A DNA stretch of 64,000 nt from Picochlorum sp. SENEW3. Lineage: Eukaryota. Of this stretch, positions 2,563 through 62,104 are shown in pieces (position 1 is the first letter of the stretch; the number at the start of each line of letters is the position of its first letter). Below the pieces are notes generated by a model. The model ran no database searches. It saw only the letters and a program-made list of their open reading frames with translations, and was not told where the DNA came from. A program made the translations under genes and the position numbers. The stretch lies in the NCBI GenBank assembly GCA_034226945.1, contig CP120463.1, positions 248,001 to 312,000 on the forward strand, read 5' to 3'.

Positions 2563-3654
2563 ATGGCTGACCTCGAGACCCGGTTGAGGTTGGTGCTGGA
2601 AGAGCTATCTCGGGATACGAGGGAATTTTCTATTGGAAATCATGTGTCTGTTGAGCATGGAGGTGTTGAACCGGTGGCTTTTTTGAGAGATTGTGTGGGA
2701 CTGTCCAAGCCAGTCTTGGTCCGCCAGGATGCCGGTGTGTTGGCATGGCCAGCGCATTCTCTGTGGTCGGATGACGAGTACATGGTATCGTACGTTGGTG
2801 ATGTGGAGGTGACGGTCGCATTGACTCCCGATGGGTTGGCTGACTGCCCTGTGACGGATGGGTTGTTTGCTCTTCCAAAGTACACCAGAATGCCTTTCAG
2901 GGAGTTTTGGCACCTCTTGAATGGTTGTATAGGCAAAGGGATTGTTCCATATTTGCAGCAGCAAAATAGTTCTTTGACAGAAGAGGTACCCGAGCTATTA
3001 CGTGATGTGCCTGGAGGGATTGCATGGGCAGAGAATTCATTTGGAAAAGAGCCTGAGGCTATCAATCTGTGGGTTGGTGGGCGTCCTTCGCGCACATCGT
3101 GGCATCAAGACCATTTTGAGAATATATATGTGGTTCTGCGTGGGAGTAAAACGGTTCGATTGCTTCCTCCTATTGATTCATTCAGAATGAAGTTGAAACG
3201 GTATGAACAGCAGTCATATGACTATGATGATGATGATGATGATGATGATTGGAAGCTCGTCTTGGTGCCTGCGCAAGGAAACACGACGATAAAAAAAGAA
3301 GATAACGATGACACTCGTAGCGAGAGGGTACACGAGGAAGAAGAAAAGCACACAGTGTTGTGGAGTTCTATTCTGCCTTGTTCCTGCCTGGAGGCACCTG
3401 GGACAAGGTCTCTTTGTTCAAGCTGCCTGGAGCTAGACAATACAGGAATGATGCCTCTCGAGGTTCGGGTAGATAAGGGGGATGTTTTATACATCCCAGC
3501 GTGCTGGTGGCATGAGATTCATCACACGTCTGATGATGTGACAATCGCAGTTAATTATTGGTATGATATGACTCATGACGTCAAATTTGCTTCCATGACA
3601 GCAGTAGACACATTATCAGAAATATTCCACATGAATGAGAGTCGACATGTATGA
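2563..3654 (+). CDS. JMJD7: JmjC domain-containing protein 7-like (cupin-8, 2OG/Fe oxygenase)
   Basis: VTVALTPDGLAD, YLQQQNSSL, PEAINLWVG, the HxD ligands in WHQDHFENIY, the distal His in YIPACWWHE, and TIAVNYWYDM. Confidence 0.9.
   Translation: MADLETRLRLVLEELSRDTREFSIGNHVSVEHGGVEPVAFLRDCVGLSKPVLVRQDAGVLAWPAHSLWSDDEYMVSYVGDVEVTVALTPDGLADCPVTDGLFALPKYTRMPFREFWHLLNGCIGKGIVPYLQQQNSSLTEEVPELLRDVPGGIAWAENSFGKEPEAINLWVGGRPSRTSWHQDHFENIYVVLRGSKTVRLLPPIDSFRMKLKRYEQQSYDYDDDDDDDDWKLVLVPAQGNTTIKKEDNDDTRSERVHEEEEKHTVLWSSILPCSCLEAPGTRSLCSSCLELDNTGMMPLEVRVDKGDVLYIPACWWHEIHHTSDDVTIAVNYWYDMTHDVKFASMTAVDTLSEIFHMNESRHV
3219..3249 (+). repeat. (GAT)n coding microsatellite encoding a poly-Asp tract in JMJD7
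   Basis: Direct reading: tatgactatgatgatgatgatgatgatgatgat. Confidence 0.85.
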
Positions 3655-42448: not shown

Positions 42449-45280
42449 TTATGGTTCGTTAAGGAATGCCTCATAATCAAGAGGCTCCCAAGCAGCCAGC
42501 ATCATCTGCCTCAAGTCCTCAATCAGAGGGTATCGTGGGTTTGTTCCCGTGCACTGATCATCGAATGCGTCCTCGGCAAGCTTCACGAGAGCTTCTTCAT
42601 ACTCTTCAAATGACACTCTGTCGCCGATGGCATCCTTCATGCATGTAGGAATTCCAATGGAAGCCTTGATCTTCTCCACTTCTTTGACCAGGCACACCAC
42701 CTGCTCAATCTTTGAATTTGTTGCCTTGGCTCCTTGGCAGTCGAGGAGTGTTGCCAATTGAGCATAGTCATCGCGAGCATGCGATTCTTTGTACTGAGCA
42801 AAAGCCACAACCTTGTATGGGGCATCAGTGGCATTGTACAAAATCACATGGGAGATCATCAAGGCATTGGCCAGACCGTGGGCAATGTCAAACCTTGCAC
42901 CGAGCTTGTGAGCCATTGAGTGGCAAATACCCAAGAATGCATTTGCAAATGCCATACCAGCAATAGTAGCCGCATTATGGGTCTTTTCTCTTGCCTCTGG
43001 ATCCTCAGGGCCCAACTTGTAGGCACGTGGAAGGTACTGGAAGAGGAGGTGGAGGGCCTGGAGGGACAATCCCCTGGTGTAGTCTGTTGCATAGGCAGAG
43101 ACATAACTTTCCAATGCATGTGTGACAGCATCAATACCTCCGTTTGCTGTAAGGGATTTTGGCATATGCTTCACCAGCTGTGGATCGATAATGGCCATGT
43201 TTGGTGTGAGGGAATAGTCTGCAAGAGGATATTTAGAACCTGTTGCACCATCCGTCACCACACTGAATGGGGTCACCTCACTTCCAGTTCCAGATGTCGT
43301 TGGAATACAGATGAGAGGAGCTTTTGCACCCAAATCCGGGAAATCATACACTCTCTTTCTGATATCCATGAACCTCGTGGCCAGTCCCTCAAACTTTGTG
43401 TCTGGATACTCGTACAAGAGCCACATAATCTTGGCAGCATCCATAGGGGAACCTCCACCCAGCGCAATAATTGCATCTGCCTGATAGTCACTCAGCTCTT
43501 TGGCACCAGTCTGGATTGTTTCGATGTCTGGATCAGGCTTGACGTGGTAGAAGATCTGGGCATGCACATGGATGCTCTCCAAAACACTCACCACTTTGTC
43601 GACATATCCAAGGTCATAAAGAGGCTTGTCAGTAACAATAAATGCTCTCTTCTTTCCTTGAAGCTCTCGCAGGGCAACTTCCAAGCATCCTTCCTTAAAG
43701 TATACCTTTGGTGGCACCCTGAACCACAGCATATTTTCTCTGCGCTGTGCAACAGTCTTGAAATTGAGGAGATGCTTTGGCCCAACGTTGGTAGACACGG
43801 ATGTATTTCCGTACGATCCACATCCAAGAGTCAATGATGGGTCCAGGTTGTTGTACAAGTCTCCAATCGCTCCCTGAGATGATGGCATATTCACCAGCAT
43901 ACGGACAGTCTGAATGGTATTCTCCCATGCCTCAATATGCTCTCTGTTATTACTGTAAATAACAGACGTGTGCCCCTTGCCTCCATTTTCGACCAAATTG
44001 TTTGCAATCTCGAGTGCATCATCAAACGTCTTGGCACAAAAGAGTCCCAATATAGGGCACAATTTTTCAGAGGAGAGCACCTCATCGCTACCAACATGAT
44101 CAATTGGAGCAATCAAAAGGCGAGTATGATCCGTGATATCCCCATCCAATCCAAAAAGCTGAGCCAATTCATATGCACTCTTACCAACGGCATCTGCATT
44201 CATCCTTCCATCAGGGAAGAGTCCTTGTCTCACCTTTTCTGTGTCAGACTCTGACAGAATGTGTGCTCCTCTCCTCTCCATCTCAAACCTGAAAGCATCA
44301 TAGACATTCTCCAGCACCACGGCTGCCTGTTCGGATGCACAAATAACTCCATTATCAAACGTCTTTGACAAAAGAATATAATTCACTGCCATATGAATAT
44401 CAGCACAGCTGTCCACAATAGCTGGCGTGTTTCCAGCACCCACACCAATAGCTGGTGTTCCACTGGAATAGGACGAATGCACCATTGCTGGACCACCTGT
44501 CGCAATAATCATGCTCACTTTAGGAGACTTCATGAGCTGGAATGTCTCATCCTTGGAAGGATGCTCAATCCACCCGATAATTCCAGGAGGAGCCCCTGCC
44601 TTGACAGCAGCGTCATGCACAATCTTGGCAGCCGCAATGGTACAATCAGATGCCCTTGGATGAGGAGCAAGAACAATCGCATTCCTCGTCTTCAGTGCCA
44701 ACAAGCACTTGAAAATGGCCGTCGATGTTGGATTTGTTGTTGGAACAATACCACACAACACCCCCATTGGCTCTGCCACCTTTTGAATCCCATACACAGC
44801 ATCCTCCTCCACCACCCCAACAGTCTTCTCATCCTTGTACTTGTTATAAATCTCCTCCGACGCAAAATGATTCTTAATCACCTTATCCTCCACCAATCCA
44901 ATACCAGTCTCCTGCACCGCCATCTTTGCCAACGGAATCCTGCTCATATTTGCCTCCAACGCAGCATTCTTGAACACTGCATCCACCTGCTTCTGCGTAA
45001 AATGAGAATACGAGCGCTGAGCTGCCGCAGCCCTCGCAATCGCCATCTCCACTCTGTCTTCAAAAAGACTTGAATCCTCCCCAGCATCATCCCACGAACT
45101 CTTCTCCTGCGCACTCTCCTCCTCTCCCTTTCTATCCACATCAACCCCATTCACCCTCCATGAACCCCTTCTCCCCACACGGGGAGCAACATGTGCCGTC
45201 TGCGTCATCGCACCCGGAGAACACACCAATCTTCTCGTAGTCGTACTCTGCTTTGTTGTTCCAAGCACAGACAGTCTCAT
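42449..45280 (-). CDS. adhE: Bifunctional acetaldehyde-CoA/alcohol dehydrogenase (AdhE) with organellar transit peptide
   Basis: ALDH half: EDKVIKNHFASE, PTTNPTST, ATGGPAMV, FDNGVICASEQ. Linker PSLTLGCG. Fe-ADH half: GGGSPMDAAK, GICHSMAHK, HGLANA, DDQCTGTNPRYP. Likely start MRLSVLG. Confidence 0.97.
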   Translation of the reverse strand: MRLSVLGTTKQSTTTRRLVCSPGAMTQTAHVAPRVGRRGSWRVNGVDVDRKGEEESAQEKSSWDDAGEDSSLFEDRVEMAIARAAAAQRSYSHFTQKQVDAVFKNAALEANMSRIPLAKMAVQETGIGLVEDKVIKNHFASEEIYNKYKDEKTVGVVEEDAVYGIQKVAEPMGVLCGIVPTTNPTSTAIFKCLLALKTRNAIVLAPHPRASDCTIAAAKIVHDAAVKAGAPPGIIGWIEHPSKDETFQLMKSPKVSMIIATGGPAMVHSSYSSGTPAIGVGAGNTPAIVDSCADIHMAVNYILLSKTFDNGVICASEQAAVVLENVYDAFRFEMERRGAHILSESDTEKVRQGLFPDGRMNADAVGKSAYELAQLFGLDGDITDHTRLLIAPIDHVGSDEVLSSEKLCPILGLFCAKTFDDALEIANNLVENGGKGHTSVIYSNNREHIEAWENTIQTVRMLVNMPSSQGAIGDLYNNLDPSLTLGCGSYGNTSVSTNVGPKHLLNFKTVAQRRENMLWFRVPPKVYFKEGCLEVALRELQGKKRAFIVTDKPLYDLGYVDKVVSVLESIHVHAQIFYHVKPDPDIETIQTGAKELSDYQADAIIALGGGSPMDAAKIMWLLYEYPDTKFEGLATRFMDIRKRVYDFPDLGAKAPLICIPTTSGTGSEVTPFSVVTDGATGSKYPLADYSLTPNMAIIDPQLVKHMPKSLTANGGIDAVTHALESYVSAYATDYTRGLSLQALHLLFQYLPRAYKLGPEDPEAREKTHNAATIAGMAFANAFLGICHSMAHKLGARFDIAHGLANALMISHVILYNATDAPYKVVAFAQYKESHARDDYAQLATLLDCQGAKATNSKIEQVVCLVKEVEKIKASIGIPTCMKDAIGDRVSFEEYEEALVKLAEDAFDDQCTGTNPRYPLIEDLRQMMLAAWEPLDYEAFLNEP

Positions 45281-46100
45281 ATCCACAACACCCTGCATGC
45301 AATCACATGACAGATTGCCGTCAATCCCCCTCTCTCCACTCGATACCCATCCACACACCCAAACCCAAACACAAATACCATAAAACTATATATAGGTATA
45401 AAATCAACCACCAAAACCCGTCCATCAACACGTGCCCTAGTCGCGCATGCCCCCGCTGCCCTAGATCATCATCATCATCAACAACAACAACAACAGCAAC
45501 AGGCTGTTTGTTCAACAACCCCATCCACATACCTTGATGTGTATGACTCTGTATCGTATTAAGGAGTGAAATGAAATCCTCTCGGTTTTTTCACTCTGAA
45601 CAGATCAACGCGTGATCTCTCTCTCTCTGTGACTCGTATACTTCTGTGTAGAAGAAACACCTCTTCTATCTGTATATAGATACAGATACAACAAATATAC
45701 TTGTATAAATCGATATAACAGTAATTAATTATGCGAAAATGAGATGGGTTGTTGTACATCAAAAATGATTCCATGCAGCATATTCCATTCCATGCGAGAA
45801 GGCGCGGAGGCCACGTGTACTGTTTTGATGTGACAGGCAAAATCTCCTTGCTAGTAAAGTAGGAGATGGGCCCCTATCCCAGACCACTCTCGACCGTGCG
45901 CGGTTGATTGATCAAGACACAAAGAAAGGTTGAGAGGGTCCATTCGACCAAATCCTCTTTTTGTAATACCTCAGGTACTCATCTTTTTTATCAGCATAGG
46001 AATTTCTCTAATAAAAAGATAACAAATAGCAACTGAGCATTGCAGTACTACTCCATAGTGAGAGTGAAAAAGACAGCGACGGAAAATAAAGAGCGCGAAC

Positions 46101-46490
46101 ATGGCACTGCCTCGGAGTGAGACTTCTCGTTCTTCTGCAGATAAAGAGGAAGAAGAAGAAGAAAAAATAGAAGAGTCTTCGACTGGATTGGAACGGGCAA
46201 TGGCGCATGCGAAGGAATTTATAGAAGCGACTCCAGAGCAGCATAAAAAGTGACTGAAGAATACATGGAACAAGTTTCTCTCATCTGTGACGAACTCTTC
46301 TTCTTCCTCTTCTCAAAAGACTCCTTCTCACAAGACCACTCCTGGCGGTGGTGTAAGTACTAGTACTAATAGTGGGGCGAGCACGGCTGTAGGGGGTACA
46401 GAGGAGAGAGGAGCCAAGGTTGCCGTGTACAGAGTGAAGGCTGTTGTGGGGTGCACAGGCGACGACGATGATGATACGCGAGAGAAATAA
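46101..46490 (+). CDS. Small hypothetical protein with an in-frame TGA at 46251-46253 (candidate selenoprotein or readthrough; 50 aa if TGA is the stop, 129 aa if recoded)
   Basis: ATG at 46101 reads ...EFIEATPEQHKK-TGA-LKNTWNKFLSS..., and the same frame stays open to TAA at 46488-46490. Confidence 0.6.
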
Positions 46491-46615
46491 TAATACATAC
46501 TATACACGAGAGGAGTATACCAATTTAAAGTAATTTCCAAAATAACGATCAGAAGAAGAGATGAAAGAGAGAGAGAAGCATGTGTTCCTTGCTTAGCTAA
46601 GCAATGCTCATGTGC

Positions 46616-46662
46616 GAGTCTGAATATGATGGACTGGTTCAAGTCCTGACGAGGTCAGATTC
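46616..46662 (+). promoter_or_regulatory. SECIS-core-like / kink-turn RNA hairpin
   Basis: GAGTCTGA/TCAGATTC 8-bp lower stem, A-TGAT/TGAC quartet, GGACT/AGTCC upper stem, 6-nt loop. Confidence 0.45.
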
Positions 46663-46697
46663 AAGTATAATACCAATAGTATCATGTAATAATAATA

Positions 46698-49600
46698 ATG
46701 AATATAGAAGACGAAGAGGGACGAGGGCGTGTTGGTTTGGGAGAGGTTTTGGAAGAAGAAGAAGAAGAAGAAGAAGGTTGTTCGCGACTGTGGGAGGGGA
46801 ATGCTTCTTCTTCTTCTTCTGAAAAGAACACTGGTGTTCTTTTTGAAAAAATACAGTCGTATAGGTATAATAATGAAGAAGAAGCTTCTGGGGGTGGTGG
46901 TTTGAATGACGTGGATGTTGCTGATGCTGCCTTGTGTTTTTGTTTGGGGTTGAATGAGGATCGTGGGCTGGTGGATTCGCTTGGTATCATTTCAGATGTA
47001 TTTGAAGATCGGATGAAGGATGTTTTGGGTGGTCTTGTATCAGAGAGGCCTTCCTCTTTGGACAATGTTGACTTGGTAGACGACTGTGAATTGATTCTCG
47101 AGAAGGGATCCGTCGATGTGATTTCGACTGGACCTGGAATGTACTCTGTGGTGGGAACGAGTAACTTTTCTTCTGTGCGAGGTGGCATTGATGTGCCTTG
47201 TGAGGGGCGTTGGATGTTTGAGGTGCAGTTGAATACACCTGGGATTATGCAGTTGGGTTGGGTGACGCCTCTGACGGTGTATACATCCGAGGATGGGGTC
47301 GGTGATAGTCGAGATAGTTATGCGTATGATGGCAAGAGGGTGCGGAAGTGGAATGTGGAGTCCATGTCGTATGGGGAGAAGTGGACTGCTGGGGATGTGA
47401 TATCATGTGGGATTGATCTTGAGAATGGGAGGATAGAGTACTGGAGGAATGGGGTGCCAATGGGTGTGGCGTATACGCCGAAAGTGTTGAATGATATATC
47501 GTATTCTCCTGGAGTATCGGTGAGTTATGCTGAGGCGTGTGAGATTAATTTTGGGCATGTGCCTTTCCGGTACCCAGTGGATGGATTCTTGCCGCTTTTG
47601 CCAGAGGTGGAGCTTGCGTCGACGGCTTTATCCTGTGCTGCGTATTTGACGGATTGTTTGGAAAAGTTGACGGTTCTTGGGCAGATGAGGGGGGCAATGT
47701 CTCCAGGAGAGGCAGCTGCTGTGGCTGCATCTCATGCAGCAGAGATGTTGGGGTTGGAAGCATGCACAGCTCGGATGAAGGATGCATATAGGGTGAACAG
47801 CAGGAATACTCTTTTGAGTACTATTCGGGATCAGGCAGCGAGATTTTTAATGAAGGAGTTGGCATGGGTGATGCGTAGTCATTTTGTGGTTGATGCTGTG
47901 TTTCTAGAGTCATTCCAGCGGATGCTCTTCTATGATCAGCGTGGCAGTCCTATGAAGACGTTCTTAGAATTACTTGCTGATAATCTTGATGATAGATCGT
48001 GCAAAGATTTTGTGCATGCTGTGTGTGCGAGTTGTGGGCGAAGGGTGAAAGGAAATGTGTGGGAGAGAAGCATGGTTGTTGGACGTTGTGATGCCGTGGT
48101 TTATACGCGGATTTGGTTGCATTTCATGACAAATCGTAGATTTGTGTATTCATGGCTTGATGGGAAGGATTGGATGGAAGAGTTTGAAGATTTCTTTGCT
48201 GTGAGACAGCCAACAAATGAGGACTTGGCTCAACTTGTTCCAGCCTCTGCGGAGGATGATGTTGAATGCATGTTGGACAAAATGATTGGGTTTGGACAGT
48301 CTGATTCTCATGAGGATATGAGTGATGCTGTCACGGATGTAGTTACGTTGTTAAAGTATGTTGAGGATTGGCAAGGTCAGTTGCTTGGTACATTGTTAGA
48401 GTTGAAAAAGATTGAGGAGGGAGGAGATGAGAAGGCACTTGTAGTGAATGAAATTGAAGAGGTATTGGATGATGCTACCGTGCAAGATTATCTCGATAGA
48501 TTTGCTGAAGACCAGGCTACTACGATATCTAGGGATGGGTGGCTGGACATGGTGAAAGCTGTCATGGTGTTTGATGGACACGTGGAATCAACCATGGTTC
48601 CACCGTATTTTGCGCAGTTTATCAAGTATATCACGCGCAAAAATCTGGGGGTGAATAGAGAAATGGCGCCCCCTGGGCTCTCAAATCCTACTGTTGTGTG
48701 TTCGTTGCATTCATTTGTTGTACGGGCTTGCAGAAAGTTCTTGAGAAAGGTACATTTGGAAGGCTCTTCATTTGAATTTCCACCTCAGGTGTTTTTACGT
48801 GGAATCCGATCTACTGTCGTGGGAGTTTTGGATGATTTCGATGACGATAGCCTGGATCCAGATGCTCGTTTGGGTGGTGGACTGTCCTATCTGTGTAAAC
48901 AGTCCATTGTGGATGTATGCAGTCAGACTTGCAGGCCGCTTCATGTTCCTGCTTTAGACGAGGATGTTAGAGCTCGTGACTGGTTACTTGGACCAATGTC
49001 TCGGCCTATGGCAGTTTTTGAGGAGGGTGCGTTGTGGAAAGATTGAATGACGACTATTTTATCGGTAAACTTGAAGCATCAATTGTTTATGCAGCACCTG
49101 AATGGTCTTGGTGGCTTGTAAATGCCTCCTTTGTGCTGTTTCATCTCGGAGCCAGTCAAATGACAAAGCTAATTTATACGTACATGCAAACATTTGAAGC
49201 GGCAATGACCTCATACAAGGGAATGCTGGAAAAGTATAATGCCGAATCAGAGGGGGCCGGGGCAGAAATTATTGAATTCACAATGAAAGAATGCAAAAAA
49301 ACAATGATTGAAAGCCTCAGATTGCTCATGTGGTATATGAATTGGCTCATGCCAAAATGGAAGCAGGAGACATTTGGTGCATTGGCAGCAGTCATGGCTA
49401 GGATAGTTCTCCACATTCAACAAGATAACAGAGGCCCTCTACTGTCCTACGTTGCAGATTTGTATGTGGAGGGAGCCCTTGATATGGTGCGTACTCATTG
49501 ATTATTATTCGTATATACTCAAAAAAAAGCTGGATGCTCATGTGCTTGTGTTCTTTGTAGGTCTTGGCCTGTAGGAGATCGGATCAGGTGTCCTGGAAGT

Positions 49601-50934
49601 CATTAGAAGATCAGAATTCCTTTTATTTGGAGCAAATCGTCCAGTTATGCATCGGTCTAATTCGAGATACAAGGGTTGTCGATCCAAGAGCGCAAAATTC
49701 GATTTTGTATTCGTTGTGGATGATGATTCGGGATGAAGATACGTGTTCCTTTCTGTGCCAAAGCTCCTATGCAAGACAGGCCCTGCTGCCTAGTTTGATA
49801 GAATCTTTCGACCACCCACGAAATTGGATTCATGCTTCCAATGCGTTTGGCCTTTTAGTTTCTTCTAGTGGACTCTCTCCTCGCATAGGAACCGGTGAAG
49901 AATCAGCAGGAGTAAGGGGGTATAGAGAGGAGATGAGGGCATGGCTTGCTGCTATTCTCCAGCAGGACAAGAAACTCAGGAATACATTGTTCACCTCACT
50001 TATTGATAGGCTAAATTGGATCTCTCCAGAGGTGATACTAATTGTGGAAGAATTGCATCAGCAGCTCAGGGATTCTGGAGGCATTGAGGATCAAGCTCTC
50101 AGTTATAGACGGGTATTAGCAGCATGTGACTTGTGTTATCATCTCGTCAGGTTGTTGGAGATTGCCTGTACGTTTGATCCGGAAGCCATATTGAGTGCAG
50201 AACCTGACGCCGAGTTGCTGAGCGCTCGTTTGGCAGAGCTCATTGGGTGGGGGCTGCAAAATTTTTGTGAGCAGTCTCATCTCAACAAGCTCCTATCCAA
50301 GATCCACCAGCAGCATGAGCAGGGCTTGTTGCGACTTGGCAGGGATGTCAGAACAACCATGGTTATAGAGGTTTTGGGCCCATATCTGGGCATACTCTCT
50401 TCCCTAGAACAATATGCATCTCGAGCAAAGTCTGGAGTACCAGCTCTCTATTCTCGAGGAAAAATGCCTGATGAATCTGTCGTGGATGGCTGGCATGCGT
50501 TCATCCTCTGTTTGAAGGAGAACTCGGTATCAGGGGATTTAATCAAGGATTGCCTCCGTTTGGTAGAAACCCCGACGCAATCTGGCCTGCAAACACCATC
50601 TGAAGCAGACATCAATAGCATTCACAATGTCATCAAGGCATTTGACTGCATTGAATCCCCTGAAGGAAGTGCGCTAGGAGATGAGCGAAGAACATCTATA
50701 ACAGTCCCCGAAGAGTTCTTAGACCCCATTCTGAACGTTCTAATGAAGGATCCCGTCATCCTTCCGGATTCAAAAGTCACATTGGACAGGAAAACCATTC
50801 AACGACATCTCACCATCAGTGCAACAGATCCATTCAGTCGCTGCCACCTGTCAGAAGAAGATTTGATACCAAATCAAGCTCTGAAGAAAAAACTGGAAGA
50901 ATGGATGAAACTTCATGTCGATGCCTGCGAGTAA
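46698..50934 (+). CDS. SPRY-domain E3 ubiquitin ligase (RKP/RNF123-like) ending in a U-box; introns 49027-49094 and 49487-49560
   Basis: SPRY: FSSVRG..GRWMFEVQL.TPGIMQLGW..GVGDSRDSYAYDGKRVRKWN..NFG..PFRYPVDGF. RKP-like 'PPGLSNPTVVCS'. U-box: VPEEFLDPIL..LMKDPVILP..LDRKTIQRHL..DPFSR..LIPN. Confidence 0.88.
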
Positions 50935-61777: not shown

Positions 61778-62104
61778 TTACAAAATGCGTTGCAGTTTTC
61801 TTTCTTTTTTTTTTCCTCATAATTATCATTCATTCTAGTGTCATCCATCTATCTGCATATGATGTACATGTAATGATGATGGTACACTCTTGAAAAAAAA
61901 ATACACACATTGATCAAAGATTTGAAACTAGGAATCAAGCCATGGTCTCAGCGATCTTGGTGGAAAAAATTCGTCATGGCAGTATTGCTCAAGAGTAGCA
62001 AATATATAACATAAGATTACATCACCGACCACAGCACCAGATATGCCTCAGAGAGAAGATTATGTATGATCAGTAGGGTGATGCTGGAAACCAGCAGCAC
62101 ACCT

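Follow-up and report, generated by a model that had tools for sequence, protein, structure and literature searches.

Does an in-frame TGA in a small algal gene end its protein, or is it translated, and if it is translated, as which amino acid? The question is raised by a frame in the window, the whole stretch of 64,000 nucleotides analysed here, which runs from an ATG through 50 sense codons to a TGA and then continues for 78 open codons to a TAA at 46488–46490 (Table 1). An earlier note on this DNA, made from the sequence alone, had placed the start, the TGA at codon 51 and the open codons beyond it in the same way, and the translation obtained here is identical to the one given there. That note had also put the product forward as a candidate selenoprotein.

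The small gene and its genomic setting

The frame lies in a 1.4-kb spacer. On one side of it the minus strand carries a gene for a bifunctional aldehyde/alcohol dehydrogenase, and on the other the plus strand carries one of the SPRY/RNF123-like, U-box kind. The former gene is of the AdhE type and intronless, and encodes 949 aa with Aldedh and Fe-ADH domains and an N-terminal extension. The latter comprises ORFs at 46698–49046 and 49720–50934 with a 113-aa ORF between them, which suggests introns or frame breaks, and its first codons contain a long GAA/TTC inverted repeat (a run of E, then a run of S) that gives spurious miRNA and psbA-3′UTR matches in the E-value mode of Rfam. The gene content of the window, with MGDG synthase, Det1 and adaptin among others, is that of a compact green-algal nuclear genome, and its DEAD-box helicase falls into a 90%-identity cluster with proteins of Picochlorum sp. 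BPE23 and P. renovo. The window also contains a SNORD24-like C/D box snoRNA (Rfam RF00069, 48.3 bits against a gathering score of 41).

Within the window TGA serves as a regular stop codon: it terminates 11 of the 29 Pfam-supported ORFs and lies inside none of them. Because 128 of the 2778 TGAs in the window (4.6%) precede 78 stop-free codons, an open frame past a TGA is no rarity and by itself weak evidence, and the argument has to be built on the relatives. In an oligo-dT RNA library, two 151-nt contigs (46088–46250 and 46226–46376) run unspliced across the TGA, at a depth of 2 and with DNA carry-over possible. Judged from its sequence and that of its relatives, the small ORF is a genuine gene rather than a chance frame, belonging to a green alga of the Picochlorum type. 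The description of the gene as overlooked holds only in part, as relatives are already annotated as truncated "hypothetical protein" calls ending at the TGA.

Table 1. Features of the small gene and of its surroundings in the window. L001 and L002 are two related metagenome loci described in the text.
Feature	Position	Strand	Basis or remark
Small gene, 129 codons including one in-frame TGA, then TAA	46101..46490	+	reading frame, orthologues
In-frame TGA, codon 51, putatively recoded	46251..46253	+	same alignment column in window, L001 and L002
Conserved core, residues 28–64, two predicted helices joined at T-P	46182..46292	+	alignments, AlphaFold2
Second conserved motif, VAVYRVKAVV, 55 codons past the TGA	46419..46448	+	kept in L001 and L002
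Hairpin, SECIS-core-like kink-turn (AUGA on 5′ side, GA on 3′ side, adjoining U.U)	46612..46668	+	fold, conservation
TGTAA, likely poly(A) signal of the small gene	46685..46689	+	8 nt before next ATG (46698)
AdhE-type aldehyde/alcohol dehydrogenase gene	42449..45298	−	
SPRY/RNF123-like, U-box gene	46698..50934	+	
GAA/TTC long inverted repeat	46747..46827		
SNORD24-like C/D box snoRNA	61944..62030	−	Rfam

Conservation on both sides of the TGA

Two loci were recovered when metagenomes were scanned with the ORF core. The first, L001 (1072 nt, 46% GC, ORF 67–429, TGA 259–261), is syntenic with the window, the SPRY gene coming next, and the second, L002 (61% GC, ORF 2914–3339, TGA 3046–3048), is non-syntenic and has an SRP14 gene and a cGMP-type kinase as neighbours. 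When the SPRY protein encoded next to the small gene was used as the query, the metagenome scan found no relatives. In the window, L001 and L002 the TGA is embedded in the same sequence, ...HAKEF(I/M)EATPEQHKK-TGA-LKNT(W/F)xKF..., and the codon alignment of the three loci contains synonymous differences both upstream of the TGA (GCG/GCC, ACT/ACG, CAT/CAC and AAA/AAG) and downstream of it (ACA/ACG and TTT/TTC). Past the TGA, 78, 55 and 96 codons remain open in the three DNA sequences, and all of these frames reach a VAVYR-type motif, which reads VAVYRVKAVV in the window, IAVYRVKAVV in L001 and VAVYRASVV in L002 and which itself carries synonymous changes (GCC/GCA, TAC/TAT and AGA/CGA). The linker between the core and this motif differs among the three in both length and composition.

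Between the window and L001, dN/dS is 0.454/0.906 upstream of the TGA and 0.355/0.895 downstream of it. In a closer relative (X14), the indels past the TGA, among those listed, are −3, −6, (−2, −2, −5), +3, +3 and +12, and thus net multiples of three. Among the differences listed for the same relative, 7 substitutions in 298 nt fall within the ORF, and outside it the adjacent coding sequence has 20 in 570 nt and the 3′UTR has 18 in about 193 nt. Stretches left uncovered in the sequencing runs (for example 45897–46552 in X17) were not counted as evidence.

As judged from these alignments, the UGA is conserved and both of its flanks are under coding constraint. The comparison that the earlier note had regarded as decisive was whether relatives carry TGA or Cys at codon 51 between conserved flanks; relatives keep the TGA, and one lineage has Cys. 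Nor does homology end at the TGA, an outcome that the same note had named as fatal to its proposal, since conservation continues to the VAVYR motif.

The protein family and its residue at codon 51

A full HMMER scan and two profile searches recovered a family of 72 database proteins that carry the core motif HAKEFxEAxPE(Q/E)Hxx-U-LKNT(F/W)xKF, in which U marks codon 51 and in which His36, Ala37, Glu39, Phe40, Glu42, Ala43, Pro45, Glu46 and His48 are invariant in the family alignments. At the protein level, 61 of these 72 proteins end exactly at the column of codon 51, two residues past the invariant His. The ending forms include Tetraselmis transcriptome ORFs and genes on contigs of up to 2.2 Mb, and four close relatives (P0003, P0018, P0033 and P0034) likewise stop at this position. 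The column is occupied in the other 11 proteins, by Trp in five, by Cys in five and by Arg in one.

The Trp forms continue as (L/V)K(N/S)TF(N/S)K, and these conserved residues confirm the downstream frame. None of the five comes from a contig longer than 1460 nt; where contig sizes are available (58 representatives), contigs of up to 1500 nt account for four of the four Trp forms and for 14 of the 54 truncated forms (Fisher p 0.007). Since they are confined to short contigs, the Trp forms are probably products of table-4 gene calling, in which TGA is read as Trp. The Cys forms belong to a single, Auxenochlorella-type lineage (the NCBI-annotated P0006, the transcript-like P0030, and P0012, P0050 and P0051) and read ...PEQHRQ-C-LRNTFNK...; Cys is the only true sense replacement that could be confirmed (P0006 and P0030). 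The single Arg form runs into unrelated sequence, where there is probably an intron.

Two further features of the family concern regions outside the codon-51 column. The gene calls of P0007, P0013, P0052 and P0012 enter non-homologous sequence just past ...NTF(N/S)K-V, and the annotated Auxenochlorella product is spliced at that very point, which suggests an intron (GT...) in several lineages that is absent from the Picochlorum gene. In addition, most members have an N-terminal Cys (MSC.., MGC.. or ..GC..) in one alignment column, from which the Picochlorum forms depart; this residue may be an acylation/lipidation site or a partner of the recoded residue.

A word-index protein search with the low-complexity read-through protein returned nothing, as did the family profile when run against prokaryote genome contigs and viral contigs, and no land-plant member was seen in these searches. 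P0004 (7917 aa, 23 repeats) and P0008 were set aside as motif-level or compositional matches. Residues 34–71 of the query match P0004 23 times through a KKNTFSKLRSF-like motif, a likeness that is probably one of motif rather than of homology. P0048, which came from a cluster listing, is an unrelated bacterial-type protein.

Predicted structure

AlphaFold2, with a six-sequence alignment as input, predicts two helices, comprising residues 28–42 and 45–64, and disorder elsewhere; mean pLDDT is 57, with values of about 70–80 in residues 31–60, and confidence outside the two helices was too low to justify a fold search. From its N- to its C-terminal end, the predicted product consists of a disordered acidic N-terminus, the helix-turn-helix core, a Ser/Thr/Gly low-complexity linker, the VAVYRVKAVV motif and an acidic tail. 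In this model the residue of codon 51 is the seventh of helix 2, three residues past the invariant His48. The helical pattern that the earlier note saw running straight across the TGA thus reappears in the prediction, in which a single helix, 45–64, spans codon 51. The read-through protein has no CxxU-type motif. Pfam assigned no family to P0001 or P0003 and gave sub-threshold noise alone for P0005–7, and the look-alikes of the Cys form in the ESM Atlas were unnamed clusters alone, with values (0.89–0.90) at chance level.

The hairpin in the 3′ untranslated region

The 3′UTR of the small gene contains a hairpin, 136 nt past the stop codon and present in one copy within the window. Its lower helix pairs 46612–46623 with 46655–46668 over 8–12 bp and leads into internal loops of AUAUGAU and UGACGAGG, in which AUGA occupies 46626–46629 and GA occupies 46648–46649, with a U.U past the AUGA/GA pairs. 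Above these, an upper helix of 5 bp (GGACU/AGUCC, 46631–46635 with 46642–46646) is closed by the 6-nt loop GGUUCA. The minimum free energy is −19 kcal/mol (z −2.70), and two of 200 shuffled sequences folded equally well. In the alignment of the window and L001 3′UTRs the hairpin is the sole conserved block, and the only change in its upper part is an A/G difference in the loop; the AA of the hairpin is unconserved, being GA in L001. A hairpin of like build (AUGA-N9-AA-N13-GA) lies 38 nt past the stop of L002, where the upper helix has up to nine layers with bulges.

A loose K-turn-hairpin descriptor matched once in each of the three 3′UTRs, at chance rates of 17/500, 43/500 and 24/500 that are optimistic, the descriptor having been written after the hairpins had been seen. 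Across the two strands of the window (128 kb) the same descriptor finds 19 sites, and the hairpin pattern was found nowhere in the viral contigs.

No Rfam SECIS reaches its gathering score in the 64-kb window, and none appears at E ≤ 10 in 45300–47300 or in L001 and L002. According to passages of PMC2375036, SECISearch expects 10–13 nt from the quartet to the AA and 15–39 nt from the AA to the GA, and the corresponding spacings in the window are 11 and 5. The limits given for SECISearch3 in sections of PMC3753652 are 7–15 for stem 2 and 8–30 for the apical loop; stem 2 in the window is 5 (6 with the U.U) and the apical loop is 6, both below these limits. The 3′ core of the hairpin is UGAC, against a consensus of KGAW, and no other AUGA/GA combination in the three 3′UTRs pairs properly as a canonical SECIS. 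The SECIS-like hairpin announced in the earlier note therefore does exist, with an AUGA/GA core, but it is not a canonical SECIS, as it lacks an Rfam match and fails the size limits. It is better described as a candidate miniature SECIS or as a candidate site for another K-turn protein.

Only about 35 nt separate the hairpin from the next gene's ATG, and it could be a part of that gene instead; the sole argument to the contrary, a soft one, is provided by L002. In chlorophytes TGTAA serves as a poly(A) signal, and in L001, as in the window, a TGTAA is found downstream of the hairpin.

Two other identities of the hairpin were considered and rejected. A T-arm-like reading of GGUUCRAGUCC has two stem mismatches, and ARAGORN finds no tRNA there. 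In a C/D box snoRNA a distance of some 60 nt or more, with guide regions, separates the C box from the D box; here AUGAUGG and CUGA are both present at a distance of 16 nt, and Rfam at E ≤ 10 is empty over 46612–46668. In the X17 run, depth rises to 643 at 46553–46637, compared with about 65 over both flanking genes, and a back-joint connects 46682 to 46608 with two letters between. This pattern could reflect a tandem duplication of the hairpin segment in the X17 relative or high expression of the 3′UTR, the type of the run (RNA or DNA) being a guess.

Probable translation of the UGA as selenocysteine

These comparisons make it very probable that ribosomes translate the UGA instead of terminating at it. 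As to the residue inserted, selenocysteine (Sec) is the identity towards which the balance inclines. It is favoured because the stop stands in the heart of a conserved domain and is kept in nearly all lineages, and because the sole fixed replacement is Cys, the lineage uses Sec and a conserved AUGA/GA hairpin follows downstream. As in selenoproteins, the UGA is located inside a conserved domain and a predicted helix, and it is unlikely to mark the end of a complete short isoform. Passages of PMC11092101 report a tRNA-Sec(TCA) and 5–11 selenoproteins in Picochlorum SENEW3, and the selenoproteins named in those passages all belong to known families; on the strength of this literature, a loss of the Sec machinery is unlikely. 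Sec machinery is also reported, in the portions of the literature consulted, for the TUC clade (Trebouxiophyceae, Ulvophyceae and Chlorophyceae). The window itself contains no tRNA genes, and no known selenoprotein gene that might serve as a SECIS control was found among the 39 ORFs scanned. The weak point of the Sec reading is that no canonical SECIS is present, and the UGA-C context and the A-rich codons before it would also suit leaky termination.

In the mechanism that we favour, a real and expressed small green-algal gene would have its UGA codon 51 translated, most likely as Sec, and would be the first member of a hitherto undescribed selenoprotein family distributed among the green algae. 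The range of this putative family would take in Picochlorum, Tetraselmis, a GC-rich picoeukaryote and many metagenome lineages, with a Cys form in Auxenochlorella. Sec would be carried by the second helix of the helix-turn-helix core, one turn past the invariant His (H-x-x-U), and the kink-turn hairpin (AUGA...GA) would direct recoding as an unusually short SECIS bound by SBP2. The proximity of His and Sec in the model suggests a redox or metal-binding site, with the N-terminal Cys as a possible partner. The identity of the residue as Sec, the role of the hairpin as a recoding signal and this chemistry are all three what we infer from the data above. The broader proposal of a widespread green-algal selenoprotein family decoded via a miniature SECIS, with a 5-bp upper stem and a 6-nt loop, is a tentative one.

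Other readings of the UGA

The rival that survives best is programmed near-cognate readthrough, in which a leaky UGA would be read by ordinary tRNAs (Trp, Arg or Cys) to yield a 50-residue short product and a longer functional isoform, and in which the hairpin would have nothing to do with the decoding of the UGA, being, for instance, a site for a K-turn protein or a piece of the next gene's leader. We regard it as the less probable explanation, though still a live one. The earlier note had pointed out that the UGA-C context allows plain readthrough, and this stands: the codon is followed by CUG and a conserved downstream frame in all three DNA sequences, the nine bases past it (CTG AAG AAT) are identical even in L002 with its 61% GC, and A-rich Lys codons precede it, while a canonical SECIS was not found. 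The occurrence of Trp in five database forms and of Cys in five would also fit, the codons for Cys and Trp being single-base neighbours of TGA and the residues expected from near-cognate decoding. The Trp forms, however, are limited to short contigs, as gene-caller artefacts would be, and one of them (P0031) has Val, and hence G at +4, past the site, so that a C at +4 is not universal.

The position of the UGA also argues against readthrough. Known readthrough extensions are usually C-terminal add-ons, whereas here the stop falls midway in the sole conserved domain and in a predicted helix, and the short product would be half of a helix hairpin. The stop is nevertheless kept in 61 of the 72 forms, across very divergent lineages, and the one lineage that has fixed a sense codon has fixed Cys. 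Readthrough thus poorly explains why a half-domain short product should have been retained for so long. A recoding stem directly past the UGA (GAAGAAU/GUUCUUC) was considered and rejected, as its seven pairs include no compensatory change; folding z-scores of 1.10, 1.00 and −0.39 give no energy excess.

Readings other than Sec and near-cognate readthrough are, taken together, improbable. In the first of these, still more improbable when taken singly, the short peptide of 38–64 residues would be all that is made from the upstream part, and the downstream frame would owe its conservation to a separate product, started by reinitiation at the CUG immediately past the UGA, or to constraint at the RNA level. 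CUG is the best non-AUG start codon and UGA-CUG is invariant in the three DNA sequences, and the short form is what gene prediction and transcriptome ORF calling give for 61 proteins. In Auxenochlorella, however, the two halves form one polypeptide joined by Cys (P0006 and P0030), and the predicted helix is continuous across the site; the downstream frame is without an AUG, and both its changes, biased towards third positions, and its indels, whose net lengths are multiples of three, suggest that it is translated in frame with the upstream half.

That the frame is a chance ORF, that the TGA is a sequencing error or that an intron at 46250–46319 removes it is hardly credible, even though open frames of this length follow a TGA by chance at the rate given above, the spacer separates two divergently oriented genes as their promoter region and GTGACT...AAAG can be read as intron ends. 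Chance and sequencing error, the latter raised in the earlier note, are ruled out by the recurrence of the TGA with both of its flanks in the independent assemblies L001 and L002, and P0003, P0018, P0033 and P0034 stop at the same place. The 70-nt intron that the same note had raised is rejected, since the stretch in question is the best conserved coding sequence of the gene (LKNTW/FxKF), is unspliced in the RNA-library contig 46226–46376 (weakly, at depth 2) and is retained in the spliced Auxenochlorella product.

Implications for selenoprotein inventories

Passages of Jiang et al. (2020; PMC7539508) credit trebouxiophytes with 0–5 selenoproteins. Selenoprotein counts of this kind depend on similarity to families already known and on canonical SECIS models, so that a family with neither known homology nor a canonical SECIS would be invisible to both approaches. 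If selenocysteine is indeed the residue at codon 51, the family would be a new one with a helix-borne H-x-x-U site and a new chemistry to explain, and the hairpin would offer a natural minimal SECIS for studying the needs of SBP2 and eEFSec. If the miniature SECIS also proves real, the accepted size rules for eukaryotic SECIS elements would fail in trebouxiophytes, and SECIS-based genome scans would have systematically missed trebouxiophyte selenoproteins. Should the UGA instead be read through independently of Sec, it would represent a deeply conserved green-algal recoding event inside a protein domain, which would also be unusual. At least 61 database gene models truncated at codon 51, and five more that read Trp there, need correction.

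Comparison with known systems

The described families compared were SELENOK/S/W/T/H/M/U/O, GPX, TXNRD, MSP and the Ostreococcus hypothetical selenoproteins 1–3, none of which matches the present family. The strings HAKEF, QHKKU, EHKKU and LKNTF are absent from the supplementary files of Lobanov et al. (2007; PMC2375036). PEQHKK, LKNTF and PEEHKK were not found in the full-text literature searched, and HAKEF occurred there, among the matches listed, in unrelated subjects throughout. The gene is a strong candidate for an undescribed selenoprotein family, although the family may already figure among the 42 that Jiang et al. (2020) catalogue, for example under "Hypo".

Among the nearest counterparts in kind are the Ostreococcus hypothetical selenoproteins 1–3 and MSP, which, according to passages of PMC2375036, came out of Sec/Cys and SECIS searches and have no assigned function. 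The present protein is, like them, a candidate green-algal selenoprotein of unknown function; in sequence they are unrelated to it, with a C-terminal CUG or PCUGR, or with GLUNIAQAG, in the parts of Lobanov et al. (2007) concerned. SELENOK, SELENOS and MSP, which according to passages of Jiang et al. (2020; PMC7539508) occur in algae almost solely in the Sec form and are without CxxU, resemble it in several respects: the UGA is retained within the conserved region of a small protein, a lineage with a small selenoproteome has Cys in its place, an AUGA/GA kink-turn hairpin lies in the 3′UTR, and in these searches the family was not seen in land plants. The present family has no sequence similarity to any of these three (no Pfam family), its candidate Sec lies in mid-helix past an invariant His rather than near the C-terminus, and its hairpin, with roughly half the dimensions of a SECIS, has no Rfam score.

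The hairpin shares with a canonical SECIS its helix 1 (8–12 bp), its internal loop, the AUGA on the 5′ side, the GA on the 3′ side and its location in the 3′UTR, and a U.U mismatch past the core is a feature of the Dictyostelium SECIS described in passages of PMC2375036. It differs from the canonical element in having a stem 2 of 5 bp, a loop of 6 nt, an AA-to-GA distance of 5 nt, a UGAC core and an unconserved AA.

A last comparison is with the readthrough genes of other kingdoms. Animals and fungi possess conserved genes with programmed UGA readthrough, in UGA-C or UGA-CUA contexts. The present gene resembles them in that C follows the UGA, the downstream frame is conserved and the stop has long been kept, and it departs from them in that the stop interrupts a conserved domain and the sole fixed sense replacement is Cys.
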